Source: an uncultured Bacilli bacterium (GTDB taxonomy: Bacteria > Bacillota_I > Bacilli_A > RF39 > UBA660). Taken from it: DNA of 64,000 bases. The position numbers and the translations under genes were made by a program. A model generated the notes under the pieces. That model was not told the origin of the DNA, searched no databases, and worked only from the letters and a program-made list of their open reading frames with translations. The DNA lies in NCBI GenBank assembly GCA_934096295.1, contig CAKOLL010000004.1:48258-112257 (forward strand), written 5' to 3'. The stretch's first letter is position 1. The number at the start of each line of letters is the position of its first letter. Shown here piece by piece: positions 1,858 to 41,324 of this stretch.

Positions 1858-3018
1858 CTATTCTTTTGTATCATCATCTATGATTTGATAAAATTTATTA
1901 ATAATTGTTTCCGATGTAAAATCCTTATATCTTTTATATCCTTGCTTGATATAATTATTTCTTAAAGCTTCATTTGTTAATAAGTTTGTCATTTCTTCAG
2001 ACATTTTTTGGTAATCTCCGACAGGACACAATATTCCAAATTCATTATTACGTATTATATCTCTAGGACCGAACGGAGCATCCGTGGCTATAACGGGACA
2101 TCCGTTTCCCATAGCTTCTACAATTACCATTCCTAAGCCTTCTACTTTTGTTGATAAAACGAATAAAGAAGCATTTTTATAGTATTTTACTACATTTGTC
2201 TGAGCCCCAACTAATACTACATTATCTTTTAGATTCAGTCTATCAATTTCATTCTCTATTAACTTTCTATCTGGCCCGTCTCCAACAATTAAAAGTTTAT
2301 ATTCAGAAATTATTTTTTTATCCAAATTATTATAAGCATTAATTAAAGTTATAAAGTCTTTTGGGCTTTCTAATCTAGCAACTGAAAGAATGTATTTTCC
2401 ATAATCCTCTTCTAACTTTGAGTTCATTTTCATTTCTATCGTTGGATTATATAGATTAACTATATTTAAATGTAGATATGGTTTAGTATAAAAGATATCT
2501 GATTGATCTAGATTATTAATCGATACTAATGTATCAAATTTTTTATACATTTTTTCGAAAGCTGGAGACATCATTAAGTATTGATAAATCATTCCATGAG
2601 CCCATACTATTTTCTTTGTAGCTTTAATAAATTTTAGAACTACATAACAATCATTAACATGTCCAGAAAATGCTATTGCAACATCATATTTTTTTTCTCG
2701 TAACCCTTTTGTTTTAAAATAATCAATAGGTTCTATAAACAATGTTTTTAAAATATATGACCCATAATAAAGAATTGCTCCGGCATCTCTTCTAATCATT
2801 GTTGAGGCTCTTGATAAAGGATTATGATTTCTAGGGATATTTATTTTTATTATACGACATTCTTTAGGAATTTGTTTTATCATATCTTCTGTATTAGATA
2901 GTATTATAACATCAATGTTATATTTATTTTTATCTATCGCTTTTAAATAATTAATTGCTACTCTTTCAATTCCTCCGTACAGAAATTGATCCAAAACAAA
3001 ACAAATATTTTTTTTCAT
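1858..3018 (-). CDS. GT-B fold (family 4/1) glycosyltransferase
   Basis: C-terminal EGLGMVIVEAMGNGCPVIATD motif. I prefer the ATG at 3018 (MKKNICFV), preceded by AAAGAGGTG, over the track start at 3042, which would overlap the upstream gene. Confidence 0.85.
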   Translation of the reverse strand: MKKNICFVLDQFLYGGIERVAINYLKAIDKNKYNIDVIILSNTEDMIKQIPKECRIIKINIPRNHNPLSRASTMIRRDAGAILYYGSYILKTLFIEPIDYFKTKGLREKKYDVAIAFSGHVNDCYVVLKFIKATKKIVWAHGMIYQYLMMSPAFEKMYKKFDTLVSINNLDQSDIFYTKPYLHLNIVNLYNPTIEMKMNSKLEEDYGKYILSVARLESPKDFITLINAYNNLDKKIISEYKLLIVGDGPDRKLIENEIDRLNLKDNVVLVGAQTNVVKYYKNASLFVLSTKVEGLGMVIVEAMGNGCPVIATDAPFGPRDIIRNNEFGILCPVGDYQKMSEEMTNLLTNEALRNNYIKQGYKRYKDFTSETIINKFYQIIDDDTKE

Positions 3019-3031
3019 TTGTAACACCTCT

Positions 3032-4093
3032 TTAATCATCAAATTCTATACTATTTTCCACTTTATTCTCAAGTTTATATGGGAAATCGTATAAATAATT
3101 TTTCAATTCTTTGGTTATTATTTTAATTTCTTCCTTATATTTTTCGTCTCCGTTAAATACTTGAGTATTATTAATAGATAATTCAGGAATAAATCTAGTC
3201 TTTCGATTTATATGTTCTTTTTGTGTAAACCCAACAAATTTTTCTATTTTTTCTACGGTTTCATCGTATTTATATATTAAATCTTCAAAATGTAATTTGT
3301 AAACTTTTTTTGAATTGGAAGGATGTTCACTTTCTCTTAAACTTTTATAGAATTTGCAAAATTCTTTGACATCCTTTGGAAAAGGCACACCAATATTTTT
3401 TGAATCCCATATATATTTATTTAAAACGAAAACATCTCTTGGATCTCTGTCTACTCTAATAACTTTTAACTCATCTCCAAAATAATTGTCTACTCTAAAC
3501 AAATTGAATGGCAAGAGTAATTGGTCTAAAATCACATTATCTTTGCCTCGACATGCATCGTTTAATACTTTACCAATATATTTTTTAGAACAACTATAAA
3601 ATTCTTCAGACTTAATATAAGATAATTTCATCCCATCACTGTATCTAAGGATTTTTTTGTTAAATATTTTATTTCTAAAAATCATTTTAAAAGGTTTTCT
3701 TAAAGTTAATTTTAAAATCATTTTTGCATCTGGTTCTTCGTGGGTATACCAATAGCCCGGAAACTTAAACTCTGTTATTTCATTAATAAAATCATTTGTG
3801 TAATCAATAAACTTTGGTCCAATTATTTTCTTATAATTACCAACCCACCAAAATTTTTTATCGTACAATTTCTTCATTTGATTTTCAAAAGCTCGAATTG
3901 CATAATCACTTTTTATAGCATTATTTCCAATTAATAATTGATCTTCTAAATCAAACAATCCGTTTGGACAATGTAAAAAAACATATTCATAACTTTTAAA
4001 GTCATTTGAAACATCTTTATATTCTGATAATAAATCAGTAACAGCAGATGAACCTGATCCCATATAACCCGTAGGCACTATCAACTTTTTCAC
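3032..4093 (-). CDS. hypothetical protein, possibly sulfotransferase-fold
   Basis: It has an N-terminal Gly/Ser loop (TGYMGSGSSAVTDLL) and a later RVDRDPRDVFV segment. These resemble the 5'-PSB and 3'-PB motifs of PAPS-dependent sulfotransferases. The assignment is weak. Confidence 0.35.
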   Translation of the reverse strand: MKKLIVPTGYMGSGSSAVTDLLSEYKDVSNDFKSYEYVFLHCPNGLFDLEDQLLIGNNAIKSDYAIRAFENQMKKLYDKKFWWVGNYKKIIGPKFIDYTNDFINEITEFKFPGYWYTHEEPDAKMILKLTLRKPFKMIFRNKIFNKKILRYSDGMKLSYIKSEEFYSCSKKYIGKVLNDACRGKDNVILDQLLLPFNLFRVDNYFGDELKVIRVDRDPRDVFVLNKYIWDSKNIGVPFPKDVKEFCKFYKSLRESEHPSNSKKVYKLHFEDLIYKYDETVEKIEKFVGFTQKEHINRKTRFIPELSINNTQVFNGDEKYKEEIKIITKELKNYLYDFPYKLENKVENSIEFDD

Positions 4094-4095
4094 TT

Positions 4096-5565
4096 TTATC
4101 TTTTCCTCAACTTTCTTAATATCAAATTTACATTTTCGTCTTTTACTATTAATAATCCAATTCCATAAAAACCTATACAGAGAATCATTATTAATAAAAT
4201 GTTAATATAAAAATTTAAATTAAAACATCTTATTAGCAATGATATTGGTATAAACATTAATGATAATCCCATATATAAAATATTTTGTTTAGTAAATAAT
4301 TTATAATTTATTTTCATTTTATATTTAACATGAACATACAATAATACACCTAGTATTAATTGAACTATTCCAGTCGTTATCATACATGTTAATGGAGTTA
4401 ATATTTTTGCAAACCCCATCACTAAATTAAATATTAAATTAATTATTCCCGCAATTAAAGTATATTTAACAATCTTTTTCTCTTGATTGTTTGGATACAT
4501 TACCAAATTTATTAATGTTGAATCTATGCTAATTATAATCCTTATAATAGCTGCAACCATTAAAACAGGAACTATTGCCATATATTTATCTCCAGCATAA
4601 AGATAAACTATCTCTTTGGCTAGAACAAATACACCTAAACACATTGGAATAATAATAAATAATAAAGATGACACCGCTTTATTCAATGTATTTTCATAGC
4701 TTTCTTTTCCTTCGTTATCAATTAAATATGATAGTCTAGGAATAGACACAAATATTATAGAATATGGTACTGCAACTAAAGTAGATACAATGTAATATGG
4801 AATATAATACATTGTTACTGATACACCATCTATAAATTTTCCTAATAAAACCATATCTAATTGGCTATATAATAAATCTATATTTGTGATAATTACTATT
4901 AGAAATAAAGGTTTTAAATATTTTTTTAACTCTAATGTTTTAAAATCAAATTTTATCCTTTTACTTGCATAAATGAAACTTACTATATTATTAGCAAAAA
5001 CTGTTAGACAAATTATTATTGAATATATTATTATATCTGTTGGTTTCTTTACAAATATAAATAATGATGCCATATAAAATATTTTAATTATTAAGGTTTT
5101 TAATGTTATAAACTTATAATTTTCTAGAGCTTCATTAACAAATTCTATATAAAATATATTGGCAATAATTTGAATAAGCATTAATAAATATAAAGTTCTT
5201 GTAATATCTTTAGCAATTACAAACGAATAACCAATGTATATGCCTCCAACAATAAAATTACTTATCAATGATATCACAAATAAATTTGTCAATAATTTAG
5301 AAACTTTTTTCTTATCATTTCTAATTTTACTAATTTCCTTTATTCCATATGTATAGACTCCGAAAGATGCAAATGTTAAAAATAATTGAAAATCAGCATA
5401 AACTTTATTATAAGCACCATATAGATTTACATCAAGAAGTTTAACTATGTAGGGACCTACTAAAAGAGGGATTAAAATATTTACAAAGCTCAAAATTGAT
5501 TTATATATAGTATTTTTAAACAATGATTTTTTATTTTCCAAAATATTCCTCCTAGCCATGTACAT
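4096..5565 (-). CDS. Wzx-type polysaccharide flippase (MOP superfamily)
   Basis: 489 aa, about 12-14 hydrophobic spans, in a glycan cluster. A TTG at 5541 preceded by AGGAGG is an alternative start. Confidence 0.8.
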   Translation of the reverse strand: MYMARRNILENKKSLFKNTIYKSILSFVNILIPLLVGPYIVKLLDVNLYGAYNKVYADFQLFLTFASFGVYTYGIKEISKIRNDKKKVSKLLTNLFVISLISNFIVGGIYIGYSFVIAKDITRTLYLLMLIQIIANIFYIEFVNEALENYKFITLKTLIIKIFYMASLFIFVKKPTDIIIYSIIICLTVFANNIVSFIYASKRIKFDFKTLELKKYLKPLFLIVIITNIDLLYSQLDMVLLGKFIDGVSVTMYYIPYYIVSTLVAVPYSIIFVSIPRLSYLIDNEGKESYENTLNKAVSSLLFIIIPMCLGVFVLAKEIVYLYAGDKYMAIVPVLMVAAIIRIIISIDSTLINLVMYPNNQEKKIVKYTLIAGIINLIFNLVMGFAKILTPLTCMITTGIVQLILGVLLYVHVKYKMKINYKLFTKQNILYMGLSLMFIPISLLIRCFNLNFYINILLIMILCIGFYGIGLLIVKDENVNLILRKLRKR

Positions 5566-5621
5566 TTAGTTTACCACATTTGACAATAATAATAAAGATT
5601 TTTCATATTTTTCTGTTCTTA

Positions 5622-5650
5622 TTGACTAATAATTTTAAAAGTGATATTAT
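5622..5650 (+). promoter_or_regulatory. sigma-A-type promoter for the choline module
   Basis: TTGACT (5622-5627), 17-nt spacer, TATTAT (5645-5650), about 40 nt before the ATG at 5688. Confidence 0.4.
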
Positions 5651-5687
5651 ACTTATAGTGTTCACGAAATAAAAAGAAGGAGAATTT

Positions 5688-7430
5688 ATGAACAATATAC
5701 AAAACGAAATATTAATATTTATTTTTGAAAATGGTTATACAAACCAAAGAGATATAGCTAAAAATTTAAATTTATCTGTAGGATTAGTTAATAAAACCCT
5801 TGGTAAATTAATAAGTAGTAATTATTTGGATGAAGATTATTCTTTAACTAGTAAAGCAATTAATATAATTCAAAAAAATTCACCTAAAAATGCTATAATT
5901 TTGGCTGCTGGTTATGGAATGCGTATGGTTCCAATTAATAATGAAATGCCTAAAGGACTTATAAAAGTTAAAAATGAAACTTTAATAGAAAGAATTATAA
6001 AACAATTGCATGAATCAAATATTAAAAACATTTATATAGTTGTTGGTTTTTTAAAAGAAAAATTTGAATATTTAATAGATAAATATAATGTCAATTTAAT
6101 TGTAAATAATAAATATAGTAGCTTGAATAATCTATATTCTTTATATTTAGCTAAAGATTTTATTGAAAATTCATATATTATACCTAGCGATATATGGTGT
6201 CAGTATAGTCCTTTTAGAAAAAACGAAATAAATTCTTGGTATTTAGTAACTGATAAAAATGATTTAAATAGTAATGTAAAGTTAAATAGAAAAAATGAGT
6301 TATTAATTACAAATAGTTATGGAAATAAGATGATTGGAATATCTTATATTAATAAGGATGATAGTTTACTGTTAAAAAAACAATTATGTTTAATGTATAA
6401 TAATCCTGAGTATTATAATTCTTATTGGGAACAGGCTTTGATAAATGGAAAAAAATTTACTATTTCTGGACGAATATTATATAAAAATGAAATTACAGAA
6501 ATAAATACTTATGAACAATTAATGGATATAGATGAAAATTCTGATTCTTTAAATAATGAAGCAATCAATATTATAAAAAATGTTTTTAAAATTGGTAAAA
6601 ATGAGATTAAAAACATTGAAATTTTAAAAAAAGGTATGACAAATAGATCATTTCTATTTATGGTTAACAATCAAAAATATATTATGAGAATTCCTGGTGA
6701 GGGAACAGACAAATTAATTAAAAGAGATGAAGAAGCGCATGTTTATGACATTATAAATGGAAAAAATATTAGTGATGATGTAATCTATATAAATCCACAG
6801 AATGGGTATAAGATAACAAAATTTTTTGAAAATGCCAGAGTATGTGATGCTTCCAATGTTGATGATTTAAAAGCTGTAATGAAAAAACTAAAGGATTTTC
6901 ATCAAATGAAATTGAAAGTTAGTCATGAGTTTAATATTTATAAAAAAATTGATTTTTATGAATCTTTGTGGATAGAAAAAAATTCTGTGTATGATGACTA
7001 TCAAAATACAAAAAAAAATGTATTAAGTTTACGAGAGTTTATAGAAGAAAATATTGAAGAAAAAATATTAACTCACATCGATGCAATACCAGATAATTTT
7101 CTTTTTACAAATAATGGTATCAGATTAATCGACTGGGAGTATTCTGGTATGCAAGATCCACATGTTGACATTGCTATGTTTATAATTTATTCTTTGTATA
7201 ATAAAGAACAAGCAGATAATTTAATTGATATATATTTTAATCACAAGTGCAAAACCAAAACAAGAGTTAAAATTTATTGCTATATTGCTCTTTGTGGACT
7301 TTTATGGAGTAATTGGTGTGAATATAAAAGAGGTTTAGGAATAGATTTTGGAGAATACGCTTTAGCACAATATAGATACGCAAAAGATTTTTATAATATT
7401 GTAAAACAAGAAATGGAGAAATTGAAATGA
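5688..7430 (+). CDS. tri-domain protein: winged-helix HTH + LicC-like choline-phosphate cytidylyltransferase + LicA-like choline kinase
   Basis: HTH: TNQRDIAKNLNLSVGLVNKTLGKL. Nucleotidyltransferase: ILAAGYGMRMVP...PKGLIKV...VGFLKEKFEYL...YSLYLAKD, close to pneumococcal LicC as I recall it. Kinase: KKGMTNRSFLF...THIDAIPDNFLF...LIDWEYSGMQDPHVDIA. Confidence 0.8.
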   Translation: MNNIQNEILIFIFENGYTNQRDIAKNLNLSVGLVNKTLGKLISSNYLDEDYSLTSKAINIIQKNSPKNAIILAAGYGMRMVPINNEMPKGLIKVKNETLIERIIKQLHESNIKNIYIVVGFLKEKFEYLIDKYNVNLIVNNKYSSLNNLYSLYLAKDFIENSYIIPSDIWCQYSPFRKNEINSWYLVTDKNDLNSNVKLNRKNELLITNSYGNKMIGISYINKDDSLLLKKQLCLMYNNPEYYNSYWEQALINGKKFTISGRILYKNEITEINTYEQLMDIDENSDSLNNEAINIIKNVFKIGKNEIKNIEILKKGMTNRSFLFMVNNQKYIMRIPGEGTDKLIKRDEEAHVYDIINGKNISDDVIYINPQNGYKITKFFENARVCDASNVDDLKAVMKKLKDFHQMKLKVSHEFNIYKKIDFYESLWIEKNSVYDDYQNTKKNVLSLREFIEENIEEKILTHIDAIPDNFLFTNNGIRLIDWEYSGMQDPHVDIAMFIIYSLYNKEQADNLIDIYFNHKCKTKTRVKIYCYIALCGLLWSNWCEYKRGLGIDFGEYALAQYRYAKDFYNIVKQEMEKLK

Positions 7431-13577: not shown

Positions 13578-13606
13578 TTGACAAAAGCATTTTTATATTG
13601 TAATAT
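13578..13606 (+). promoter_or_regulatory. near-consensus sigma-A promoter
   Basis: TTGACA (13578-13583), 17-nt spacer, TAATAT (13601-13606). Confidence 0.6.
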
Positions 13607-13612
13607 TAATTT

Positions 13613-13722
13613 ACCGGAGAGTAATCTCGTCAGGTCGATAGTTAGATTTTGATTATTTATAATTAAGCGTGCTTTGTGTACGCCATGCTAACTGGGATTA
13701 AGCTACTCATGTAGCTTTTTTT
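13613..13722 (+). ncRNA. unclassified ~110-nt structured small RNA
   Basis: It lies between the promoter above and the hairpin AAGCTAC-TCAT-GTAGCTT plus T7 (13700-13722). No ORF or SD lies inside or downstream. Internal pairings are GAGTA/TACTC, ATCTC/GGGAT, AGTTAG/CTAACT and GCGT/ACGC. Confidence 0.45.
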
Positions 13723-13805
13723 CATTTAATTAAATCTGAAGAACGAAAAAACGGAAATTTTCGTTCTATAAACACTATTTTGTTAAAATTTATAAATAAG
13801 CATTG

Positions 13806-14534
13806 TTAAGGAAGCATAATTTTATAATTAATAAAATTATCTAAAGCATTGTTAATATTTTCATTATTAGTTAGGGCATTTAATGCACCTCTTCGAATTG
13901 TTCCTGATATTAAATCTGCGGCTTGAACTAAATAACTTTTACCAGAATCTTGATATGAAATTTTAATATCTAAATCATTAAATATAATTGGATTATATTT
14001 ACATGCATAATTAAAATTACTTATACCATATTTAAGTTCTTCAACTAACCCATCATGTAAGTTATAATAACCATTACTTTTTGTAGTTTGTTCATCAATA
14101 TTTACTATTACTTTTAATGGTTTATCCTTATAAATATTTTGACTATCAATTTGATTGTTTATTATTTCTTTTATCATTCTTCTTAATGAATAATCTATAA
14201 ACCTTCCTTTTGCTGCTTTATTTTCGATAATGTGATTATAAACATTTTGGTTATTTATAATTAAGCCCACGATATAATACTTTTTTATATAATTCATAAT
14301 TCTTCTTTTATCACTACTTTTTATATTAGTATTTTTTATTTCTGGACATTTTTTATTACAAATACTTTTATTTTTACAATATTTACATTTTATATCATTT
14401 ATTATACTTCGATATTGTGTTATAAATTTATCTTTTTCTTTCTTAGATAAAAATACTATTCCTCCATAAACACTAATTAATTCTTTTTTTGTTAATTTGC
14501 CTGAATCATCTAAATTTATATATATTTCTTGCAT
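13806..14534 (-). CDS. DUF3800-family protein
   Basis: It has an N-terminal IYINLDDSGK and a C-terminal LVQAADLISGTIRR, the two signature motifs of DUF3800. It also has a Cys-rich insert, CKYCKNKSICNKKCPE. Confidence 0.6.
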   Translation of the reverse strand: MQEIYINLDDSGKLTKKELISVYGGIVFLSKKEKDKFITQYRSIINDIKCKYCKNKSICNKKCPEIKNTNIKSSDKRRIMNYIKKYYIVGLIINNQNVYNHIIENKAAKGRFIDYSLRRMIKEIINNQIDSQNIYKDKPLKVIVNIDEQTTKSNGYYNLHDGLVEELKYGISNFNYACKYNPIIFNDLDIKISYQDSGKSYLVQAADLISGTIRRGALNALTNNENINNALDNFINYKIMLP

Positions 14535-24453: not shown

Positions 24454-25692
24454 TCATTTAAAAATTACTTTCAAAAATATTTTTTTGCCTTTTTGTAAAA
24501 ATAATGAATTATCTTGTAAATCTTTAGTTGTTATTATTTGTTCTACAGATTTAACTTTATTTTTATTTAAAGAAATACCATTTTGTTCTATTAGTCTTTT
24601 AGCTTCAGATTTTGATGAAGCTAATTTTGTTTCCACTAACAAATCAACGATATTTATATCTAATATTTCTTTAGAAATAGCTATTGATGGCATATTATCT
24701 GAAATACATTGATTTTTAAATAGTTCTTCAGCTGTTTTTTGGGCTTTTATTGCTTCTTCTTCACCATGAACTAACTTTGTAACTTCAAACGCTAATATTT
24801 TCTTAGCTTCTCGAATATCTTCTTTACAGATTTTTTTTATGTCTGAAATTTCCATTCTTGTGAAAAATGATAAGCTTCTTTCCACATCTTCATCAAATGA
24901 ATTCATCCATGCTTGGAAAAATTCAAATGGTGTTGTTTTGTCTCTGGATACCCATAAAGTTCCAGTTGCAGTTTTCCCCATTTTTTCACCATCGGCTTTA
25001 ATAAGTAATGGACAAGTCCAACCAAATAATGGATCAATTTTCTTTCCTTCACTAAATCCTATTTTACGAGAAAGGTCAGCGCCCGCTAAAATGTTACCCC
25101 ATTGATCTGAACCACCTATTTGAAGTCTACATCCAAACTCTTTATTTAAATGAACAAAGTCAAATGCTTGCATTAGCATGTATCCCATTTCTAAAAATGT
25201 TAATCCACCATTTTCCAATCTTTTTTTGTAACAATCTGCGGCAAGCATATTATTAATATTGAAATGAACTCCGATATCTCTCATAAAATCTACATAGGTT
25301 TTATCACAAATCCAATCGGCATTATCCACTATAATTGCCGGATTATCTCCGTCTGTTTTAACAAACCTTTTAACTAATTCTTTAACCTCTTTTTTATTAT
25401 GAGCAACCTCTTCTTTGGTAAGCATCTTTCTCATATCACTTTTTCCTGTTGGATCTCCGATTAAAGCAGTTGCTCCCCCTATTAATATGATTCCGTGATG
25501 GCCAAAATCTTGTAACCATCTAAACATTGTTAAGGCAAAGAAGTGTCCAATGTGCAAACTATCGGCTGTTGGGTCTATTCCTAAGTAAAAAGTCGTAGGC
25601 TCCCCGTTAACTAAATTAATTATCTCATTTTCATGAGTTAAATCTTTTACATATCCTCTTTCTTTAAGGATATCAAATAACTTTTTTTCCAT
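24454..25692 (-). CDS. tyrS: tyrosyl-tRNA synthetase
   Basis: GIDPTADSLHIGHF (HIGH motif), KMGKT (KMSKS motif), C-terminal S4-like domain, and a T-box leader upstream. Confidence 0.95.
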   Translation of the reverse strand: MEKKLFDILKERGYVKDLTHENEIINLVNGEPTTFYLGIDPTADSLHIGHFFALTMFRWLQDFGHHGIILIGGATALIGDPTGKSDMRKMLTKEEVAHNKKEVKELVKRFVKTDGDNPAIIVDNADWICDKTYVDFMRDIGVHFNINNMLAADCYKKRLENGGLTFLEMGYMLMQAFDFVHLNKEFGCRLQIGGSDQWGNILAGADLSRKIGFSEGKKIDPLFGWTCPLLIKADGEKMGKTATGTLWVSRDKTTPFEFFQAWMNSFDEDVERSLSFFTRMEISDIKKICKEDIREAKKILAFEVTKLVHGEEEAIKAQKTAEELFKNQCISDNMPSIAISKEILDINIVDLLVETKLASSKSEAKRLIEQNGISLNKNKVKSVEQIITTKDLQDNSLFLQKGKKIFLKVIFK

Positions 25693-25792: not shown

Positions 25793-26003
25793 AAAAAAAG
25801 AGCAAACATCCAAAAGGACGAATTGCTCGTGGTACCACCTTTATTTGTAATAATAGTTATTACCTCTTGTTGATAACGGATACTATCCGATTTAAAATCA
25901 TCATTTGTAATTCATTATTTTACTTTTACTTTTTTTCACCAATCACAAGCTCTCTAAAAAAAATTTAAAATAATTACTTCGAATGAATCGCTTTTTAATT
26001 AAC
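25793..26003 (-). promoter_or_regulatory. T-box riboswitch leader (probable Tyr specifier UAC)
   Basis: Read on the minus strand. Stem I starts AAGCGATTCATTCGAAGTAATTATTTTA, with AGAGAG...GGTGAAA. The specifier region is TAAAATAATGAATTACAAATGATGA. The T-box core is AAAGGTGGTACCACGAG (25826-25842). The terminator is GAGCAA...TTGCTC plus T7 (25793-25829). Confidence 0.8.
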
Positions 26004-26229: not shown

Positions 26230-26604
26230 CTAATTTGTTAAGTATACATAAGACTGAGGATAATAATTAATTCCAATATCTTCTAACATTTTCGGTTGCT
26301 TATAAATTATAATTTTTCCTAACTCATAGGCAAAAGCAACCTTTTTATTCTTAAAATATTTCATATATTTAGCTTTTGAAATTCCGGAATATTGTTTTGT
26401 TTCTTTCCACAGTTTATTTGGAGTATTTGAAAGCACAGATTTTACTTCAACTTCAGCTACAACCCTTTTTACTGGGGAAGTACTATAAATAACAATTTTA
26501 TCTATTTTTCTTTTACAAATATTTTTTCTGTATTCGTATAACTTTTTTTGTTCAATAATTTTATTTGCATATTCTGGCTTAATAGGTAATAATATTGTAC
26601 ACAT
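26230..26604 (-). CDS. ASCH-domain protein (COG4933-like)
   Basis: LLPIKPEYANKIIEQKKLYEYRKN...IVIYSTSPVKRVVAEVEV...LW fits the ASCH/PUA-like pattern. I prefer the start at 26604 (GGGAGG at 26612-26617). Confidence 0.75.
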   Translation of the reverse strand: MCTILLPIKPEYANKIIEQKKLYEYRKNICKRKIDKIVIYSTSPVKRVVAEVEVKSVLSNTPNKLWKETKQYSGISKAKYMKYFKNKKVAFAYELGKIIIYKQPKMLEDIGINYYPQSYVYLTN

Positions 26605-26668
26605 TCTTTGACCTCCCAACTTACTATACCCTATTATAACATGAAATTATTAATTTCTATTATTTCTT

Positions 26669-28120
26669 TTATATCTTTATTAAATTTTTGACCAAATTAT
26701 TGTCAACTTGTACTATAGACATTGGAGGTTTTTTTAACAAATTATTTTCCACTAAGCTCTTATATGTTATTGGACTTTCTAGTGTTTTATAATATTTAAA
26801 TAGTATTAATTTTGATTTAGAGGTAAAATTTAATGTTATTTCTTTCAAAGAGTAAACTGTTCTTTTTATTGCCATAGAATATAAATCTTCTGGTTTTGTA
26901 AAATCATAAAATACATTATCGACAATTCCAATAGTAGTAAGACTTTTTTTGTTTTGACTAGCGTAAAAAAGTAATATATCCCCCGATTTGATTTGTTTAG
27001 TTTTAGCATTGCAAATATACGCTTTTTTTATTGCGTTTGCATAAGTATTAATTCCTTGAAGATCTCCAAAAGATAGTTGTGTTATCGTTTCTGATTCCGG
27101 AAACAACATTTCATGATAATGTTGTTGAATGGGTACAATAAAAACATTTCTATTTGACCAATCAAAGTTTGGATAAGTATTATCATTCATACTTTTTACA
27201 AAAACCGATTCTTTCTCAAAACTTCCATCTGCTTTTTCAGTCATCTTTACAGTTTTTTTAGTAAATCCGTATTCTAAAAATAAATTTATTAACGCTTCTT
27301 GTTTTTCAAAAATAGTTACATATATTTCATCTACTTTATTTTTAATTGCTTCATTTATAATGATTTTTATATAACTTTCGCCAATTTTGTTTCCTGTATT
27401 TGCAACTTTAAAAGTTGCCACTTTTAAACGTTTACTAGGTTTAAATGGCTCTTTAAAACTAGAATAATCTTCTGTTTCATCTTCTAACTTTAACAGCAAA
27501 AAAGAACCAATTCTATTATTAGAACATCGAGTAATATAAGCCTTATAACCTTCACGAGATTTTTTCTTATACCAATTTTCAAATCCTTTATAATCTTCTT
27601 TTAATGAATCAAAAAAATCATCTTCTAGCTCTATATTATATAAATATTCATGATTTATAAATGCTAGTGTTCTAGTTTCTTTTTCTTCTAATGGCTTAAA
27701 TAAGGTTATTGCCTCCTCGATTCCTAAAACTCTATCACTTAAATTCACCTTTTTAGCTTTATTTCTTAATTTATTATCATTAGTAATTAAATAACTAACG
27801 CAGTCTTTATATACTGCATATAATAAATTATTATCAATTATATCATTTGGTATTTTTGTACATCCAACTATATTATTAAAATTTACCGTTGCTTTTGGTG
27901 GCTTTTCTATAAAATCATAAACCCTAACTTTACTAAGAATAATATTTTTTTCTTTTTGATTTTTAATATTATTTAAATCATCTAACGTCATTGGATGTAT
28001 GAATATTCTATATTTATTTGAATCATAAAGAATTTTCGTGAGTTCTAGAACTTTGTCATTTACTATAGAGTGATCTTCTCTGTAAATTAATAAATTTGTG
28101 TCTAATAAAATCTTCTTCAT
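26669..28120 (-). CDS. three-domain protein: PIN nuclease + GNAT acetyltransferase + C-terminal PUA/EVE-like domain
   Basis: PIN: MKKILLDTNLLIYREDH...IIDNNLL...LITNDNKL (conserved acidic residues). GNAT: KVATFKVANTGNKIGESYIKIIINEAIKNKVDEIYVT...FLEYGF. C-terminus: SGDILLFYASQNKKSLTTIGIVDNVF resembles an EVE/ASCH beta-barrel. Confidence 0.65.
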   Translation of the reverse strand: MKKILLDTNLLIYREDHSIVNDKVLELTKILYDSNKYRIFIHPMTLDDLNNIKNQKEKNIILSKVRVYDFIEKPPKATVNFNNIVGCTKIPNDIIDNNLLYAVYKDCVSYLITNDNKLRNKAKKVNLSDRVLGIEEAITLFKPLEEKETRTLAFINHEYLYNIELEDDFFDSLKEDYKGFENWYKKKSREGYKAYITRCSNNRIGSFLLLKLEDETEDYSSFKEPFKPSKRLKVATFKVANTGNKIGESYIKIIINEAIKNKVDEIYVTIFEKQEALINLFLEYGFTKKTVKMTEKADGSFEKESVFVKSMNDNTYPNFDWSNRNVFIVPIQQHYHEMLFPESETITQLSFGDLQGINTYANAIKKAYICNAKTKQIKSGDILLFYASQNKKSLTTIGIVDNVFYDFTKPEDLYSMAIKRTVYSLKEITLNFTSKSKLILFKYYKTLESPITYKSLVENNLLKKPPMSIVQVDNNLVKNLIKI

Positions 28121-28350
28121 TTTAATCCTTAGCTCCTTTCTAAAATTTCTGTCTATTATATCACAACGTCTCTAAAAATTAAAGATTTATATGATTTCAT
28201 TAGCCAAGCTAATTGAATTAGTTATAATGCAAATATAATTAATTATGAAGATAAACAATGTCGAAAAATTATATTAATGAAAAAATTGTAATTAAATTGC
28301 CGCAAATATTTCTAACAAATAAAAATGGAAGAGATTTTGCTCTTCTATTT

Positions 28351-29688
28351 TTATTTCAAATCATATTTTTCTTTAAAACTATCAATATATTTTTGTCTCA
28401 TTGCAATCATTATTTTTTCTGCTATATCTATAGAAACATCATTCATATTCATGTAACTTGTATCAAGTAAAATAAAATTCTTCACACTATTATTAAATAA
28501 TTCTTGTAGTGCATTTAAACTATTATTATATTCATTTATATTTTCAGTATTTAAGAATGTTCTTTTTTCTAAGGCTAAACTTGAATTATAATCTCTTTTT
28601 AAAGAAACAATGGCATCAGCATAAGTGATTACTAGAAAGTCTATTAATTTATTAGAAATTTTACTATATTTTTCTTTTGCTTCAAGATACGTTTTTTCAT
28701 CAATGTCTTTGCGAAGATATCTTCGATAATTCCATATTTGTCTATCATTTATTGATCTATCAATTAGGATTATATCAGTTTCTAGTTTGATTGCACTTTC
28801 TAACTGTTTTGTTACTTCTTTTATTATTGCCATATTAAGTTCTAACATACTTGTTGATTTATATTGAGGTAAAAATACTTCTTTATAATACTTTGAAGTT
28901 GTAAACTCTTCAATTAAAGTAACTTTGAAACCGCCTTTTTTAAAAAAATCATACAAATTGTTAATTGTGGTAGTTTTTCCAGTTCTTGGAGTTCCACTAA
29001 ATTCAATAACAAATGGCTTTGATAGTGAGCTCAATTCTTTTAATCTTTGTATTTCTACTTTTCTAGCATGTAGCTTTTTGAGCTTTTCATAATAATCTAT
29101 ATTATCATTAAAAATTGTATTTTCTAAATAAGTATCTTCAGCTTTATCAAAAACATTATCTACCGCATTTTTAAATCTTTTAAAAATCGGTAAGTTTGCC
29201 TCTTCATTGTAAATTATACTTTCATAAACATTTGTAAAATACCATTTTTGTTGCTCTTCTCCTCTTTTAAAAGTTGAAAAGTCTTTTTTTCCATTTTTTT
29301 CGAATTTAAGCATCATATCTTCTAAATTATTTATTTTATCAGCACAAATAATTAATTTATTAGCTAAAGGTAATGTTTTTGTTTCCTTGATTGTGTGTTT
29401 TTTTCTTTCTTCCCATGAAAGTGTTTTGTTAGGTTCTGATGCTCCCATTACTAGGTTTGCTACCTTTTCACCAAATTCATTTTGTATATCTTCAATTGTG
29501 TATTTAGTATCTTCAACTACATCATGTAAGTACCCTGCTGCTATTATTTCGTCATCATAACCATAATCTTCTAATAAATTACCAACACTAATTGGATGCA
29601 TTATCATTGGTTTATCTGGTTCACTTTTTCTAACTTGACCCATATGAGCTTTTATGGCAAATGCTTTTGCTCTTTCTTTTAAGTTCAT
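28351..29688 (-). CDS. fusion of a RelA/SpoT-type HD hydrolase domain with a P-loop kinase-like domain
   Basis: HD: AHMGQVRKSEPDKPMIMHPISVGNLL...AAGYLHDVVEDT. P-loop: VIEFSGTPRTGKTTTINNLYDFFKKGGFKV, about 230 aa further on. Confidence 0.7.
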   Translation of the reverse strand: MNLKERAKAFAIKAHMGQVRKSEPDKPMIMHPISVGNLLEDYGYDDEIIAAGYLHDVVEDTKYTIEDIQNEFGEKVANLVMGASEPNKTLSWEERKKHTIKETKTLPLANKLIICADKINNLEDMMLKFEKNGKKDFSTFKRGEEQQKWYFTNVYESIIYNEEANLPIFKRFKNAVDNVFDKAEDTYLENTIFNDNIDYYEKLKKLHARKVEIQRLKELSSLSKPFVIEFSGTPRTGKTTTINNLYDFFKKGGFKVTLIEEFTTSKYYKEVFLPQYKSTSMLELNMAIIKEVTKQLESAIKLETDIILIDRSINDRQIWNYRRYLRKDIDEKTYLEAKEKYSKISNKLIDFLVITYADAIVSLKRDYNSSLALEKRTFLNTENINEYNNSLNALQELFNNSVKNFILLDTSYMNMNDVSIDIAEKIMIAMRQKYIDSFKEKYDLK

Positions 29689-35788: not shown

Positions 35789-36799
35789 TTAATTTATATC
35801 TATTCTACTTCCATCGAATTTGAAACTTAATGGATAAATAATTGTTTTTTCTATTATTAAATCACTTTGTTTAATATCAATTATTCTTTCTATTGTGGGA
35901 CTAGCATTGACTGTGATAATTTTTGAATTAACTTCTCTCATAAATCTTGATGCACTATTTGCTGATTTTGTAAATATTGATGCACTATATTTACTTCCAT
36001 TATAATTAATTTGACCTATTGCTTCATCAATATCACTTACTAAAATAGCATCTTTATTATCTAGCTTTAAATCATTATTTATATATAATTGAATATTTAA
36101 ACCGGTGTCAACTATTCTTTTTAATAAATCAATATGAGAATCATCTTCAATATATAAATCGAAATTTTCATAACCACTTGTAATAGTTTTAATTTTGCTT
36201 TTATTTAATATTATATTTTGTAATTTACGATTACCTATACAAACTACAAGATTAATGTTAGCATAATTTGATAATATAGAATCAAATTCTTCAGTAACAT
36301 GTAGTTGAATTAAATATTTTGAAACTTCAAATTTTTCTAAAACATTTTTTATAATATTAATTATTAAATTATTTGTTCCATACATGTAACCTTTATTTGC
36401 AAATATTATAGTATTACCAGCTAATATATTTCTTAAAGCCATTTCAATTATAACATAGGGAATACCATCATTTATAACTAATACATTGCCATAATCCATT
36501 ATTTGTTTACCATAAATAATCTTCTTTTCTTCATCTTTTTCGGATAAAGTAACATTACCATAAATAATTGTTTCTTTTTCTAAATTTTTAAATATGTTAT
36601 TTAAAATATTAAAATCCATTATAAAACCATTATTATTTTTTTGATCTATTTTGTTAGTTTCTAAAATTAAATCTTTATTTATAAATAATGCTTTTTCTAC
36701 TTCTTTAATGATATTTTCTATATTATTATATAGATTTATCTTACCTACACTTAGAGCATTAGAAATTATTTTACTGGCATTATCTTCCACTGCCAACAC
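35789..36799 (-). CDS. divergent gamma-glutamyl-phosphate-reductase (ProA)/aldehyde-dehydrogenase-like protein, probably not catalytic
   Basis: DIDEAIGQINYNGSKYSASIFTKSANSASRFMREVNSKIITVNASP parallels the ProA pattern AI.HI..YGS.HS..I.T.....A..F...VDSA.V..NAS. I see no Cys where the ProA catalytic Cys is expected. The likely GTG start after AAAGAGGTG overlaps the end of the giant gene. Confidence 0.5.
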   Translation of the reverse strand: MLAVEDNASKIISNALSVGKINLYNNIENIIKEVEKALFINKDLILETNKIDQKNNNGFIMDFNILNNIFKNLEKETIIYGNVTLSEKDEEKKIIYGKQIMDYGNVLVINDGIPYVIIEMALRNILAGNTIIFANKGYMYGTNNLIINIIKNVLEKFEVSKYLIQLHVTEEFDSILSNYANINLVVCIGNRKLQNIILNKSKIKTITSGYENFDLYIEDDSHIDLLKRIVDTGLNIQLYINNDLKLDNKDAILVSDIDEAIGQINYNGSKYSASIFTKSANSASRFMREVNSKIITVNASPTIERIIDIKQSDLIIEKTIIYPLSFKFDGSRIDIN

Positions 36800-39700
36800 C
36801 TCTTTCTTTATCTATTTCATCGCTTAAGGAAACTGCTTTGTTATACATTTCTTGTTGAATATTATTTAATTTAGAAATATCAACTTCTTTACCATCAGAA
36901 ATTTGTTCTAATGCTAATCTAATTTGCATTGCCACTATATTTTCATCAATTAAAGTATTAAAATATAAATCTCCGATTGTTAATTTAGAATCATTTATGT
37001 CAAATATTATAGCAAAATTTGGAGATAAAATAATTCTTGTTGTTTTAGGGTTTAATTCACAATTATATGCTATTTCTGTAACTATGTGTTCTTCATCTTC
37101 AATTGATGTGTTTAAATTATATTTAGTTCCTTTTGTTATCGTTTCCAGTCTTTCCAAAGAATTCAACAATATTAAATTAAAATTAGTATCATCATAAAGA
37201 ATATAAGTATCATTATGAACTGGTAAGGTTTTACCATCAAATGATTTTCTATCTTCTCTTTTTTCCAGTACATATTGTGTGCTAGAATCACTTGTATACA
37301 AATGACGTTTTAAAGCAACCGGAGCCTCAAAATGTAAAGGTCTTGCTAAACGGTCTTTATCTAAATAAGCATTCTTTTTTATAGATTCAGCAATATCATT
37401 ATAACCTAATCCCACAGTTATTTTTCCAAGCCTTAATCCTTCATATTCTTCTTCAGTTATTTTTCCGCTTTCTAAAAGTTCTTTGTATACTTTTTCATCT
37501 TTTTTTATTAACTCATTGGCAGCTTCTTTATAAATTGCATAAATTTCATCAGTAAATTTTTCTCTACTTTTAGTACTTTTTTCTCTTGCAAATGCTTTAT
37601 CTGGAATTTCAATATTATCAAAACATAACACATCTTTATTTCTCCATACCCAACTTTGAGATACTATATTTCCTAGTTCATCTCGAATTACAAATACCCG
37701 TCCATTCTTATCAACCATGCTATGTTCCATGCACGACTCGGCAGTATCGTTTAGTTCTTGGCAACAATCTGTCAAAGTACCAATTGCCATGGCAAGTGGG
37801 TCATCCAATCTTAACATTTCATATGAATATTTTCCTTTAGTTGCTTCAATTCGAGGAATACTACTGAAAGTTCTTCTTTTGCCATAATCATATATTTTTT
37901 GTAAAGTATCAAAATCTGATTGAGAATAACCGGCAATAGCAGATATTTCTGCAACTTTATCATTACCTAATTCTATCCCGAGAAATTTATTAGATTGAAT
38001 GTAACTTACAGCTAATGATAATGTTAGATGACGATTACTATTTAAAACTTTTATTTCATTAAATTGTTTTTGAATACTCGCAATATATTTTATATATTCA
38101 GGATTTGTTAAAATTTCCGGCATATTTGCTAGTAAAAATTCTCTGAAATCTGGATCGTATATTAATTGAAATCCTCCGAAAAGTTTATGAGCTTTATCAG
38201 GATTTATAATAGGAATTTCATTGTGTTCTTCAAAAATATCCCTTAAGGCTTTGGCTACTTTTGGATATCTTTGGGGATTAAAATTCAAAGTATAAGAGCC
38301 ATCATCGTTTTTCCTATAAAGTTGAGTAAACATGTTTTGACTTTTGTCTATATCAAATTTTTCTTCATCTATGGCATCACTTATAGGTGTAATTGATAAT
38401 GGAAGAATTACTAATTCCATGAGAGCATTATCTTTTATGTCATTGAATAATTTTTCAATAGTTTTACCTTGTTCTAAAGCTAGCGTTCTAGGTATTCCTG
38501 TTAATAAATCAATAAGTTTTTTGAATCCTTTTTGATCGTTGTCAAAAGCTCCGAATGAATATGCAAGTTTTAACATAGCATCTCTTGCTTCTACTTTTTT
38601 AGAAAAATTTTCAATTTTCATTAAAGAACTCCAGTTTGATGCAGAAGTTAAAAATTTGTCAGCTTCTTCAAGGTCAAAATTTTGCATTACGACATAATCT
38701 GGAATAAATTTGCCTCCAGTTTTATCAAACCATTTTTTCATTAAATCTACTTTGTGTGATTTTAACATTTCATCAACTGTTTCAGGCTTATTTAAACCAA
38801 GTTTAACTGCGTTTTCACTTCCAAACATTTCAAAATATTTGAAAACATCTTTTTTTAATTCTTTGTTTCTTGCAAGAGCTACCAATAAATCTTTTCCTTC
38901 TAAATAAGGTAAAATTGTTTTATCCTGTTTTAGCAATGTAAAAGACATTGGATAAAAATTTTTATAATTATAAAAATATCTCTTTATATGTGCTGGAGTA
39001 CTTTCATCTAGAAAAAATTCTGGGTGATTTTCTTTTAAAAATAACGGAGCGTCTTCTTCAAAATACTCAAGTTCTCCATGTCTAATTTTATCTATGATAA
39101 TTTCGTCAATTGTTTTTATTAAGTCTTCAAACGATAAATCTTTGTCTAAATATTTTTCTAGAGAGTTTATCACTTTTCCCAAATATTTACCATATCCACT
39201 ACATAATTGTAAAAACTTTTCATTTCCTATTAATTTTAATAATTCTACTGCATGATATTTGTTTACGCTATAGGTTTTAAAATCAAAAACAAGCTCTATA
39301 TTTTTGTCTTTTAAAATTTCTTCCAATTGTGGATATTCTCTAATATCATCAAACGATAAATTATGTCTGTAGAATTTATCTGTTATTACTTTTTTATCTT
39401 CTTCAGATATATTTTCTAAATTACTAAGGTCAGTAAATATATCTGGATAAGCTGAAAGAAAATCTGGAACATTTTCTAAATATCGGTAGTCTTTAAATCC
39501 ACCTAAAATTTTAGCATAAATGGCTTTTCTAATTTGTTTTTCAATCAAAGTTTCATCTTCAATTTCTCCATGCATGCTTTCAATTGTAATAGAAGAGGTT
39601 AACGATGTTAAAATTCTTCCATACTTTGCTAATAGTTTTAAGAATTTTTTGTTTCCATATCTAAAAATATATTCTTTTTTAAAATCTATTTCATCAAATA

Positions 39701-41324
39701 CAACATAACCTTGTTCATCTTTCAAACTTGGAATTCTCAATTTCATTATACCATTTATTATGTTTAATAGATTTTTATTAACTAAATATGGAATATAATC
39801 TTTGTGATCAAATAATAGACTTGCACTAACATAATTTTTATAAAAAGCCTCTTTTAGTGATTCAGGAGCATTGCTATCAATGAATATTTCAGGATGTTTT
39901 TCACGAAATTCACCTTGAATCCAATCATAGCTTGGGAAGTTTCCAAAAAATTCTTTACTTCTCATAAAATCTAATAAATTAGCAAATTGATTTAAAAATT
40001 CTTCATAATCTAAAGTTCCTTTTTTAAAATCAATATTATTTTTGGTTAATAAGAAATAATGAGAATTGTAAAAATCAGCAAATTTGGTTAATGTGGTTAA
40101 ATCATCTTTGTATGCGCATAGGTGTGAGAAAAATCCCATCTCGTTTTCTAATTTTTTGATATTTTCTAACCCTAAAGCTTCAACAAAAATCTTTTGACCT
40201 TTTTCCAGTGGAAATAATGATGGATCATATAGCATTAATTGCTCTTTACTTTTTAATTTGTTGCATACTGAAAAGAAAACTGCAAGATAGCATAACATTT
40301 CGTACTCTTCATCAATATTGTTTGAATTTTTTTCACTATTTGCATCATTATAAGCCGTAATAATTTTACAAAATTTTGTACCTTGGTCTGTTTTAATAAT
40401 ATAATTGAAATGTTTGGGAAAATTTTTTATATAATTTAGTAATGGAAAATCCCCAAAAAAGTTTGATAAAAATCTAACACTTTCTTTGTATGGAACAGAT
40501 GAAGAAATAAAATTAGACCATTCTATTTTTTTAAATAAGGAAATGTTATTAATTATATCGTCAATAGTTAACTTTCTATTATAATAACGCTTTCTTAAAT
40601 CTTCTGGAATATCTGCCCCGATTAATAAAATTTCTTTATTTTCCTCAACAAATGTTTCTGGTAATTTGCTTATATCTATTGGTCCAAAATTTCTATTAAA
40701 AATCATTTTTCTAAATATTCTATTATCTTTTTGTTGTGAAAATTCATAATACATTTCTATAACTTTAGGCAGACCAAGTTCTTCAACCATTTTTCTAGAC
40801 TTACTTTCTAAATTGTAAAAAATATATTTACTACTTAATTCTTCTATTTGTTCAAAATCTAAAGAAAACACTTCTTTCAAAGTTAGTTTACATTCATATA
40901 TGGTTTGTTTAAATTGTTCACTAAATAAGTCTGATAGAAAATTATTTGGATTACTTTTAACAATTTCATCATCAAAATGATTCGGATTAACAATTCTATT
41001 CAACTTATCAAAATTTCTAATATTACATCCTTTATAATTAATATATGGTGAATAACTTACGATATCAAAATCTATATTTGCCTTGGTTTTTGTAAGATCT
41101 GCAATAAAACCTTTGTCTGCTATAATTCTAAGATCTTTCCATTCATCAAATGGAATATCACTTAAGTCACAACTTAATAATTTATTTTGAAGATTATAAT
41201 ATTGATTAGCTAACTCTTCTTTAATTGTTATAGACAATTGGTAAGAATTCTTTATTTTGTTTATTATGGAATTTAACAGTGATTTAATTTGTCTAAATTC
41301 TACGACTGTTAACTTATCATTCAT
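36780..41324 (-). CDS. 1514-aa cytoplasmic protein of unknown function with a recurring ~35-aa motif
   Basis: Uninterrupted ORF with GGTGGTGAG before the ATG. No signal peptide or TM span. It has at least five copies of a [NH]P-[ED]-[IF]-F...P..[LI][KR]..[FY]Y motif and a Cys/His patch, TDCCQELNDTAESCMEHS. Confidence 0.8.
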   Translation of the reverse strand: MNDKLTVVEFRQIKSLLNSIINKIKNSYQLSITIKEELANQYYNLQNKLLSCDLSDIPFDEWKDLRIIADKGFIADLTKTKANIDFDIVSYSPYINYKGCNIRNFDKLNRIVNPNHFDDEIVKSNPNNFLSDLFSEQFKQTIYECKLTLKEVFSLDFEQIEELSSKYIFYNLESKSRKMVEELGLPKVIEMYYEFSQQKDNRIFRKMIFNRNFGPIDISKLPETFVEENKEILLIGADIPEDLRKRYYNRKLTIDDIINNISLFKKIEWSNFISSSVPYKESVRFLSNFFGDFPLLNYIKNFPKHFNYIIKTDQGTKFCKIITAYNDANSEKNSNNIDEEYEMLCYLAVFFSVCNKLKSKEQLMLYDPSLFPLEKGQKIFVEALGLENIKKLENEMGFFSHLCAYKDDLTTLTKFADFYNSHYFLLTKNNIDFKKGTLDYEEFLNQFANLLDFMRSKEFFGNFPSYDWIQGEFREKHPEIFIDSNAPESLKEAFYKNYVSASLLFDHKDYIPYLVNKNLLNIINGIMKLRIPSLKDEQGYVVFDEIDFKKEYIFRYGNKKFLKLLAKYGRILTSLTSSITIESMHGEIEDETLIEKQIRKAIYAKILGGFKDYRYLENVPDFLSAYPDIFTDLSNLENISEEDKKVITDKFYRHNLSFDDIREYPQLEEILKDKNIELVFDFKTYSVNKYHAVELLKLIGNEKFLQLCSGYGKYLGKVINSLEKYLDKDLSFEDLIKTIDEIIIDKIRHGELEYFEEDAPLFLKENHPEFFLDESTPAHIKRYFYNYKNFYPMSFTLLKQDKTILPYLEGKDLLVALARNKELKKDVFKYFEMFGSENAVKLGLNKPETVDEMLKSHKVDLMKKWFDKTGGKFIPDYVVMQNFDLEEADKFLTSASNWSSLMKIENFSKKVEARDAMLKLAYSFGAFDNDQKGFKKLIDLLTGIPRTLALEQGKTIEKLFNDIKDNALMELVILPLSITPISDAIDEEKFDIDKSQNMFTQLYRKNDDGSYTLNFNPQRYPKVAKALRDIFEEHNEIPIINPDKAHKLFGGFQLIYDPDFREFLLANMPEILTNPEYIKYIASIQKQFNEIKVLNSNRHLTLSLAVSYIQSNKFLGIELGNDKVAEISAIAGYSQSDFDTLQKIYDYGKRRTFSSIPRIEATKGKYSYEMLRLDDPLAMAIGTLTDCCQELNDTAESCMEHSMVDKNGRVFVIRDELGNIVSQSWVWRNKDVLCFDNIEIPDKAFAREKSTKSREKFTDEIYAIYKEAANELIKKDEKVYKELLESGKITEEEYEGLRLGKITVGLGYNDIAESIKKNAYLDKDRLARPLHFEAPVALKRHLYTSDSSTQYVLEKREDRKSFDGKTLPVHNDTYILYDDTNFNLILLNSLERLETITKGTKYNLNTSIEDEEHIVTEIAYNCELNPKTTRIILSPNFAIIFDINDSKLTIGDLYFNTLIDENIVAMQIRLALEQISDGKEVDISKLNNIQQEMYNKAVSLSDEIDKERGVGSGR

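Follow-up and report, generated by a model that had tools for sequence, protein, structure and literature searches.

This report concerns a two-gene element on the minus strand of a 64,000-nucleotide (nt) stretch of DNA (hereafter the window; GenBank assembly GCA_934096295.1, contig CAKOLL010000004.1, positions 48,258 to 112,257) from an uncultured Bacilli bacterium. The first gene encodes a protein of 483 amino acids (aa) in which a PIN nuclease, a GNAT acetyltransferase and a PUA-like barrel of the EVE/ASCH kind are fused, and the second encodes a stand-alone ASCH protein. An earlier annotation, made from the sequence letters and a list of open reading frames (ORFs) and referred to here as the original prediction, had described these two ORFs as same-strand neighbours, and both are indeed found in the ORF list, on the minus strand. 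The two genes, and the domains of the fusion, are laid out as follows.

26669..28120, minus strand: PIN-GNAT-EVE fusion gene, 483 aa (ORF list; PADLOC PDC-M11A; homologue of a phage protein labelled 'GevT', with an extra N-terminal PIN domain)
27695..28120, minus strand: PIN nuclease domain of the fusion, residues ~1-142 (AlphaFold2 model, Foldseek, conserved acidic residues)
27185..27664, minus strand: GNAT acetyltransferase domain, residues ~153-312 (family profile against Naa50, Foldseek)
26672..27157, minus strand: C-terminal PUA-like (EVE/ASCH-like) domain, residues ~322-483, without the Lys-Glu-Arg octapeptide (Pfam EVE in relatives, Foldseek, hhalign)
26230..26604, minus strand: stand-alone ASCH gene, 124 aa from ATG 26604 (Pfam ASCH; PADLOC PDC-M11B; phage 'GevA' 42% identical)

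Comparison with defence-system profiles identified the pair. First, the fusion matched the PADLOC PDC-M11A model (PDLC04422) over residues 3-482 of its 483, with an E-value of 6.6e-143. Second, the ASCH protein matched the PDC-M11B model (PDLC04425) over its full length, with an E-value of 4.3e-43, and its gene adjoins that of the fusion on the same strand. Third, an N-terminal PIN, a central GNAT and a C-terminal EVE domain occur in one protein, which is the architecture of the operon described by Bell, Wolf and Koonin (2020), the EVE domain being clear at the family level. We are therefore close to certain that the window pair belongs to the (PIN)-GNAT-EVE plus ASCH module, or PDC-M11. Payne et al. 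2024 (bioRxiv 10.1101/2024.01.29.577857) list this module as cassette CAS_00069, a candidate anti-phage system which they assigned by 'guilt by embedding', since the cassette is found inside BREX, DISARM and type I restriction-modification systems. The (PIN)-GNAT-EVE fusion itself had been described by Bell et al. (2020), who report that nearly all of its operons encode an ASCH protein and often an AAA_17 ATPase; they add that none of these modules had been characterised, and name Iyer et al. 2013 as having described the system before them. Since the system has been catalogued before, the window copy counts as an unremarkable example of a known, mechanistically unsolved kind.

A phage relative carries explicit labels. 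In Escherichia phage PhiR47_2 (PV340567.1; our locus L077, positions 2980-4408), a PIN-less homologue of the fusion and the ASCH gene that follows it are annotated as 'GevT toxin' and 'GevA antitoxin', respectively. GevT aligns with residues 155-470 of the fusion, that is, with its GNAT and EVE parts, at 29.8% identity (tblastn, E-value 4e-29), and matches PDC-M11A at an E-value of 2e-133, while GevA and the window ASCH protein are 42% identical (E-value 3e-33).

The domains of the fusion were not readily recovered from its single sequence. Pfam returned EVE at an E-value of 0.003, below the cut-off, PIN_4 at 0.11 and no GNAT match, and a PDB search with the same sequence returned nothing, such that family profiles and structural models were needed. 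With these, the three-domain PIN, GNAT and EVE/ASCH-like architecture put forward in the original prediction was borne out by predicted structures, by fold searches and by profile searches. The AlphaFold2 model of the full protein, built on an alignment of 26 homologues, has a predicted local distance difference test score (pLDDT) of 83.7, and a model of residues 1-148, covering the PIN domain, reaches 90.6. The leading Foldseek matches of this PIN model in the PDB are nearly all PIN proteins, including TTHA0540, FitB, VapC11/15, SMG6, Utp24 and HARP RNase P. For the GNAT domain, a profile of 72 relatives, sharing 28-47% identity with the fusion, aligned with Naa50 (6yzz) over the motif-A loop that binds acetyl-CoA (E-value 3e-7), and Foldseek with the full model returned GNAT proteins including PaiA, Naa10, RimI and the tRNA cytidine acetyltransferase TmcA. 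For the C-terminal domain, Pfam EVE was present in 23 of 26 relatives (best E-value 7.8e-9), and the best Foldseek match of the full model, ZmASCH, fell onto this barrel with a target-normalised TM-score of 0.76-0.81.

Residue conservation in the fusion was scored over the same 72 relatives. In the PIN domain there is no variation at D7, D96 or D115, and E15 and T113 reach a conservation of 90% or more; these residues map to the LLDTN, REDH, IIDNN and LITNDN motifs highlighted in the original prediction. In the GNAT domain K233 and E248 never vary, and the glycines G243 and G247 are likewise conserved to 90% or more, whereas in the barrel the invariant residues are Y368, Y386 and F441. The prediction had staked its case on the PIN and GNAT catalytic residues being kept in alignments, and both the PIN acidic residues and the acetyl-CoA loop are conserved among the relatives. 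Furthermore, with at least 1813 clusters of homologues at 50% identity in a representative library (E-value at or below 0.001), the fusion is not a chance ORF.

The ASCH partner proved to be of a particular type. The protein scored above the cut-off against Pfam ASCH (E-value 3.6e-5), and the PDB sequence search matched it with ZmASCH (ZMO0922, PDB 5GUQ; E-value 6.5e-9), an enzyme described as a Mg-dependent single-stranded-RNA nuclease; YqfB entries were absent from this search, even at an E-value of 10. Its conservation was assessed over the 59 partners from related loci, presented below, plus ZmASCH, with numbering taken from the ORF that starts at TTG. The octapeptide region, Q-K-K-L-Y-E-Y-R, is of the Lys-Glu-Arg type, and its K26, E29 and R31 are invariant, the Glu being found in 59/59 partners; invariant too are Y45, P49, W71, Y88, P121 and S123. 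Of these, Y45 and S123 are the equivalents of Y47 and S128 of ZmASCH, both required for RNA binding and cleavage. The significant match, the Lys, Glu and Arg residues, and the Tyr47 and Ser128 equivalents place the window protein within the ZmASCH-like subfamily, and ZmASCH in turn matches PDC-M11B at an E-value of 3e-29. A 2026 preprint separates ASCH proteins into subgroups with GK[T/S]R, as in YqfB, and with GKER, and neither the Thr nor the Ser of the former is found in the window octapeptide. The analogy with YqfB, an N4-acetylcytidine (ac4C) amidohydrolase, that the original prediction had drawn holds for the ASCH fold, but not for the subtype, which is that of ZmASCH. Finally, hhalign aligned the ASCH partner family with the C-terminal barrel of the fusion over 119 columns (probability 95.9%, E-value 6e-9), and on this profile evidence the two are homologues along their entire length, or paralogues, of which the barrel has no Lys-Glu-Arg motif.

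ZmASCH, the one close homologue with a crystal structure, was also considered as the product of a GNAT-EVE operon, and this was rejected because its upstream neighbour is unrelated to the fusion. In the Zymomonas mobilis locus (L074), a gene for a 375-aa protein (4825-5952, plus strand) lies 48 nt before the ZmASCH gene (6001-6447, plus strand); this protein matches nothing in Pfam or PADLOC, does not resemble the fusion, and may be a different partner for the ASCH family. The words operon, neighbour and acetyltransferase do not occur in the ZmASCH structure paper.

The linkage between both genes was then evaluated in a scan of species-representative genomes, which yielded 59 related loci spanning Bacilli, Clostridia, methanogens, Thermococci, Chlorobi, Dehalococcoidia, Kiritimatiellia and others, and thus both bacteria and archaea. 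An ASCH homologue lies immediately downstream of the fusion gene, on the same strand, in 56/56 testable loci, the other 3/59 ending at a contig edge, and the two genes frequently overlap, by 1-68 nt. Conserved pairing in other genomes was one of the points on which the original prediction would stand or fall, and the adjacency is without exception where it can be tested. Some loci depart from the simple pair: the ASCH protein may be fused to an AAA_17 P-loop domain, which in other loci is separately encoded. In eight of the 59 loci (L011, L028, L031, L034, L038, L044, L059 and L065) the fusion ORF is found in two frames beside an intact ASCH gene. Such toxin-like decay was considered as evidence and rejected as unreliable, since two of the breaks coincide with poly-A tracts and a third with a stretch of N, where assembly error is inseparable from real decay or phase variation.

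In the window, the original prediction had given the distance between both genes as 49 nt. This follows from the ASCH ORF as listed mechanically (26230-26619, 129 aa, with a TTG start at 26619), but the start is most likely ATG 26604, since a GGGAGG ribosome-binding site (26612-26617) lies 7 nt before it, and since ASCH homologues and the gene calls on identical metagenome contigs are of 124 aa; the spacer is then 64 nt. The signals around the pair are as follows.

28328..28345, minus strand: terminator-like hairpin directly 3' of the upstream gene for an HD plus P-loop protein (shuffle comparison)
28133..28163, minus strand: predicted promoter and ribosome-binding site of the pair, with an extended -10 box TGaTATAAT at 28155-28163 and AAAGGAG at 28133-28139 (consensus match, read from the sequence)
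25811-26000, minus strand: T-box leader of tyrS, 98.6 bits, downstream of the pair
24454-25692: tyrS, 3' of the T-box leader

The hairpin, one of five terminator-like hairpins in the region, where shuffled sequences would give 0.4, divides the upstream HD plus P-loop gene from the pair, and the T-box leader marks the downstream boundary of the transcription unit. Because of the -10 box and ribosome-binding site, the hairpin after the upstream gene and the tyrS T-box leader downstream, the fusion and ASCH genes look like a two-gene transcription unit of their own, as predicted from these signals.

What such a unit does is a matter of weighing family, context and chemistry. The most likely reading, to which we give an even chance, is that the pair forms a toxin-antitoxin-like, anti-phage or abortive-infection module acting on RNA. 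Considering its parts separately, a toxin-antitoxin or defence role, as suggested by family and context, is fairly probable; an RNA target falls slightly short of an even chance; and acetyl write and erase chemistry is unlikely. The toxin-antitoxin or defence part had already been proposed in the original prediction, and agrees with the PDC-M11 entry of PADLOC, with Bell et al. (2020) and with the GevT and GevA labels of PV340567.1. It is favoured as well by the unbroken linkage of both genes, by the active-site residues that are kept, by the defence-linked and mobile contexts presented below (restriction-modification and Fic genes, plasmids, phages and the place after cI), and by the antitoxin-first layout seen on an Azospirillum plasmid. 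Mechanistically, the PUA-like (EVE) barrel of the fusion would dock on a modified nucleotide, most plausibly in tRNA; the GNAT domain would move an acetyl group from acetyl-CoA onto that RNA or its aminoacyl group; and the PIN domain would cut RNA, such that, together with acetylation, translation stops. The ASCH protein, a paralogue of the barrel with a catalytic-type Lys-Glu-Arg motif, would restrain the fusion: it could hydrolyse the acetyl mark, or else compete for or bind either that same substrate or the effector itself. In this scheme the toxicity, the substrate and the eraser role are what we infer, whereas the analysis itself shows which module the pair belongs to, its domain folds, the conserved key residues, the constant adjacency of both genes and the mobile or defence-linked contexts.

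The nature of the substrate is where the genomic contexts of the module become relevant. Type I restriction-modification genes lie beside or near the pair in 11 of the 59 loci, and in Chlorobi loci the pair is found between hsdS and hsdR. Such embedding inside restriction-modification operons lends itself to another proposal, credited by Bell et al. to Iyer et al. 2013, namely, that GNAT-EVE acetylates a DNA base as an epigenetic or self-versus-foreign mark, that EVE and ASCH read or remove this mark, and that the whole works with type I restriction-modification. It is in line with this idea that EVE domains of type IV restriction enzymes read modified DNA, and that the ASCH domains of these operons were suggested to bind modified DNA by Bell et al. 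(2020), who cite HTH-ASCH (helix-turn-helix) and HsdS-ASCH fusions. However, according to the same authors a PIN domain argues for an RNA target or guide, and GNAT toxins acetylate aminoacyl-tRNA. The nearest characterised ASCH homologue, ZmASCH, moreover cuts single-stranded RNA, and the window copy has no restriction-modification partner. To our knowledge no acetylated DNA base is known in prokaryotes, although no search aimed at one was made, and this also counts against the proposal. Acetylation of DNA is therefore considered distinctly improbable, and an RNA target is preferred because of the PIN domain, the RNA cleavage by ZmASCH and the deacetylation of tRNA by ASCH proteins.

Defence-linked contexts are not limited to restriction-modification. 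A Fic gene (PADLOC SoFic / PDC-S04) is found near the pair in eight loci; in six of these, from different clades (L011, L016, L018, L024, L032 and L061), it is an HTH-Fic gene (Pfam Fic, E-value 5e-22) that immediately precedes the fusion gene.

Granted an RNA target, the role of the ASCH protein may be enzymatic or not. The 2026 preprint reports that Lys-Glu-Arg-type ASCH proteins, ZmASCH in vitro among them, strip ac4C from tRNA, and this is why the eraser idea retains a place in our reading. In its full form, EVE would select a modified tRNA, GNAT would acetylate a base (as ac4C) or the aminoacyl group, PIN would cleave the marked RNA, and ASCH would be an enzymatic antitoxin that hydrolyses the mark via its invariant Lys-Glu dyad; the homology of both barrels (hhalign E-value 6e-9) would then be that of two paralogues, with ASCH as the catalytic one and the fusion barrel as a reader. 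We hold this complete writer-eraser scheme, the core of which came from the original prediction, to be a fair hypothesis but an unlikely one.

An alternative is that ASCH only binds the fusion, its RNA or the operon DNA, without hydrolysis, as a non-enzymatic antitoxin or regulator, with GNAT being perhaps regulatory rather than a writer. Two locus variants agree with this possibility. First, on an Azospirillum plasmid, an HTH-ASCH fusion gene lies upstream of an overlapping PIN-GNAT-EVE gene, followed by an AAA ATPase, which is the classical antitoxin-first layout. Second, in a clade of Clostridia the locus has four genes, since another ASCH gene precedes the fusion gene and a separate XRE-type HTH gene is inserted between the latter and the usual ASCH gene (metagenome-assembled genome loci L014, L015, L016-L022, L027, L028 and L034); the second ASCH gene is divergent, with a Pfam E-value of 2.5e-8 and no PDC-M11B match. 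A regulatory role was also suggested by Bell et al. (2020), and the nuclease and deacetylase activities of ZmASCH are weak. Against this, K26, E29, R31, Y45 and S123 are invariant in 59/59 partners across phyla, which fits an active site better than a binding surface, and the Lys and Glu of the motif are essential for removal of ac4C from tRNA in other Lys-Glu-Arg-type ASCH proteins (2026 preprint). A purely binding ASCH protein is likewise judged unlikely.

Mobile elements are a recurrent setting of the module, with homologues on 33 plasmids and in 16 phage records, and integrases or transposases nearby in about ten loci. It could thus be that the pair mainly stabilises its mobile element, or shields it from host restriction, as Bell et al. 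(2020) suggest for prophage GNAT-EVE, and as the PIN-less GNAT-EVE plus ASCH pairs of lambdoid and other phages would allow. Yet the window copy has a PIN domain and is chromosomal, and no integrase or other mobile-element gene was found in the scanned part of the window. Moreover, the PhiR47_2 pair immediately follows cI and precedes kil, gam and bet. The place after cI is occupied in lambda by the rexAB exclusion genes, and a gene pair in this position would be expressed in lysogens, which suits protection of the host. Counter-defence or addiction as the main role is therefore regarded as quite remote.

Among prophages, the Methanothermobacter prophage psiM100 (L078, 2498-4343) provides an additional observation: its ORFD has the PIN-GNAT-EVE architecture and shares 35% identity with residues 3-434 of the window fusion, and ORFD together with the overlapping ORF5 stands at the 3' end of the 'inserted fragment IFa', which spans most of ORFD and stops before ORF5.

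In the window the pair has housekeeping genes around it (tyrS, ltaS), and neighbours of the pair gave no PADLOC match, restriction-modification included. The accessory stretch in which the original prediction had placed the pair is supported only loosely: no other defence gene is nearby, and an 80%-identical copy on other metagenome contigs has different neighbours. These surroundings, the action of ASCH proteins on tRNA ac4C and the presence of TmcA among the fold-search matches would be in keeping with a pair that tunes acetylated nucleosides in cellular tRNA or rRNA, with no part in genetic conflict. The distribution of the module is, however, patchy over phyla and over both prokaryotic domains, consistent with horizontal spread; copies reside on plasmids, in prophages and inside restriction-modification operons; and a simple modification enzyme would not be expected to carry a PIN nuclease whose active site is intact. 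A housekeeping role is thus very improbable.

The gene upstream of the pair (28351-29688, minus strand) encodes a 445-aa protein with an HD_4 domain (RelA/SpoT-type hydrolase; Pfam E-value 1.7e-17) and a P-loop kinase-like domain (AAA_28, slightly under the cut-off), and has no meaningful PADLOC match. The AAA_17 ATPase, frequent but not obligatory in the operon of Bell et al. (2020), is not found in the window, and this gene was considered as that third component of the module. It was rejected on every test applied: BLASTP gave no meaningful similarity to the AAA_17 partners, jackhmmer, applied to 65 other loci, located no homologue beside the pair, and the terminator-like hairpin lies between.

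Some further features of the window were recorded. Identical copies of the HD_4 plus P-loop protein are present in human gut metagenome contigs. Between 30400 and 31900, in the putative run of pseudogenes of the original prediction, there are short ORFs (54-101 aa) that match no family and that are called as genes on other metagenome contigs with the locus. A DUF3800-I RNA motif (13606-13730, plus strand; 53.9 bits, above the gathering score) lies beyond the 3' end of a DUF3800 protein gene (13806-14534, minus strand). Lastly, an ORF of 1514 aa (36780-41324, minus strand) and an adjacent ORF of 336 aa (35789-36799, minus strand) have no Pfam or PADLOC match.

Several of these observations speak against a toxin-antitoxin-like module acting on RNA, and lower our confidence in it. 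With regard to layout, the ASCH gene is mostly downstream of the presumed toxin gene, which is unusual for type II toxin-antitoxin pairs. With regard to context, the window pair stands alone, with no recognised defence system among its neighbours, and the neighbours of its 80%-identical copy differ. With regard to chemistry, ZmASCH neither hydrolyses free ac4C nor lowers ac4C in vivo (2026 preprint), and in Zymomonas its gene has no GNAT-EVE neighbour, which shows that the ASCH family also occurs outside the module. With regard to precedent, our literature search returned neither an experimental paper on any member of the module nor a paper explaining the GevT and GevA labels.

The module thus presents a contrast: it is widespread in bacteria, archaea, plasmids and phages, and nested in restriction-modification operons, yet no biochemical study of it was found. 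If acetyl writing and erasing were true, the pair would be the first toxin-antitoxin or immune system based on reversible RNA acetylation, which would bring a new chemistry to such systems and give the recently reported tRNA-deacetylase activity of ASCH proteins a biological role. The window copy by itself adds no new principle; it is a compact and intact two-gene example, with its own predicted promoter, from uncultured gut Bacilli.

Comparison with named systems helps to delimit what the pair resembles. With the GNAT toxin-antitoxin systems TacAT, AtaRT, ItaRT and KacAT, it shares a GNAT domain as the presumed toxin of a two-gene module, with aminoacyl-tRNA acetylation as the model reaction. 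TacAT-type toxins are small, single-domain proteins, with an upstream antitoxin of the ribbon-helix-helix (RHH), DUF1778 type. In the window, unlike in TacAT or AtaRT, the GNAT domain is set between PIN and EVE in a 483-aa fusion and its partner is an ASCH rather than an RHH protein. With VapBC-type systems the pair shares the PIN fold and its acidic residues, but the window PIN is fused to other domains instead of being a stand-alone toxin of ~130 aa, and no VapB-like gene lies upstream.

Two further resemblances are mere analogies between non-homologous systems. The toxin DarT ADP-ribosylates DNA, and PrrC belongs to the ABC-ATPase/HEPN-type nucleases. The parallel with DarTG would be that of a toxin's mark which is enzymatically erased by the antitoxin, whereas that with PrrC, an anticodon nuclease in type I restriction-modification, would be that of an RNA-directed backup effector nested between hsd genes.

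The remaining comparisons involve homologous proteins. YqfB-type N4-acetylcytidine amidohydrolases resemble the window ASCH protein in their ASCH fold and in two conserved octapeptide residues, Lys and Arg, but have a Thr or Ser where the latter has Glu. With ZmASCH the likeness extends to the ASCH subfamily, to the complete Lys-Glu-Arg octapeptide and to the Tyr and Ser equivalents; the difference is in gene context, as the ZmASCH gene has no adjoining GNAT-EVE gene in Zymomonas. GevT and GevA of PhiR47_2 show the same gene order as the window pair, with a junction that is overlapping in the phage, but GevT has no PIN domain and is phage-borne. Finally, compared with the operon of Bell et al. 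(2020), the window copy has neither an AAA_17 ATPase nor a nearby restriction-modification system, both of which are optional there; what it shares with that operon and PDC-M11 are the A and B models matched at full length, the domain order, the adjacency of both genes and the conserved residues.

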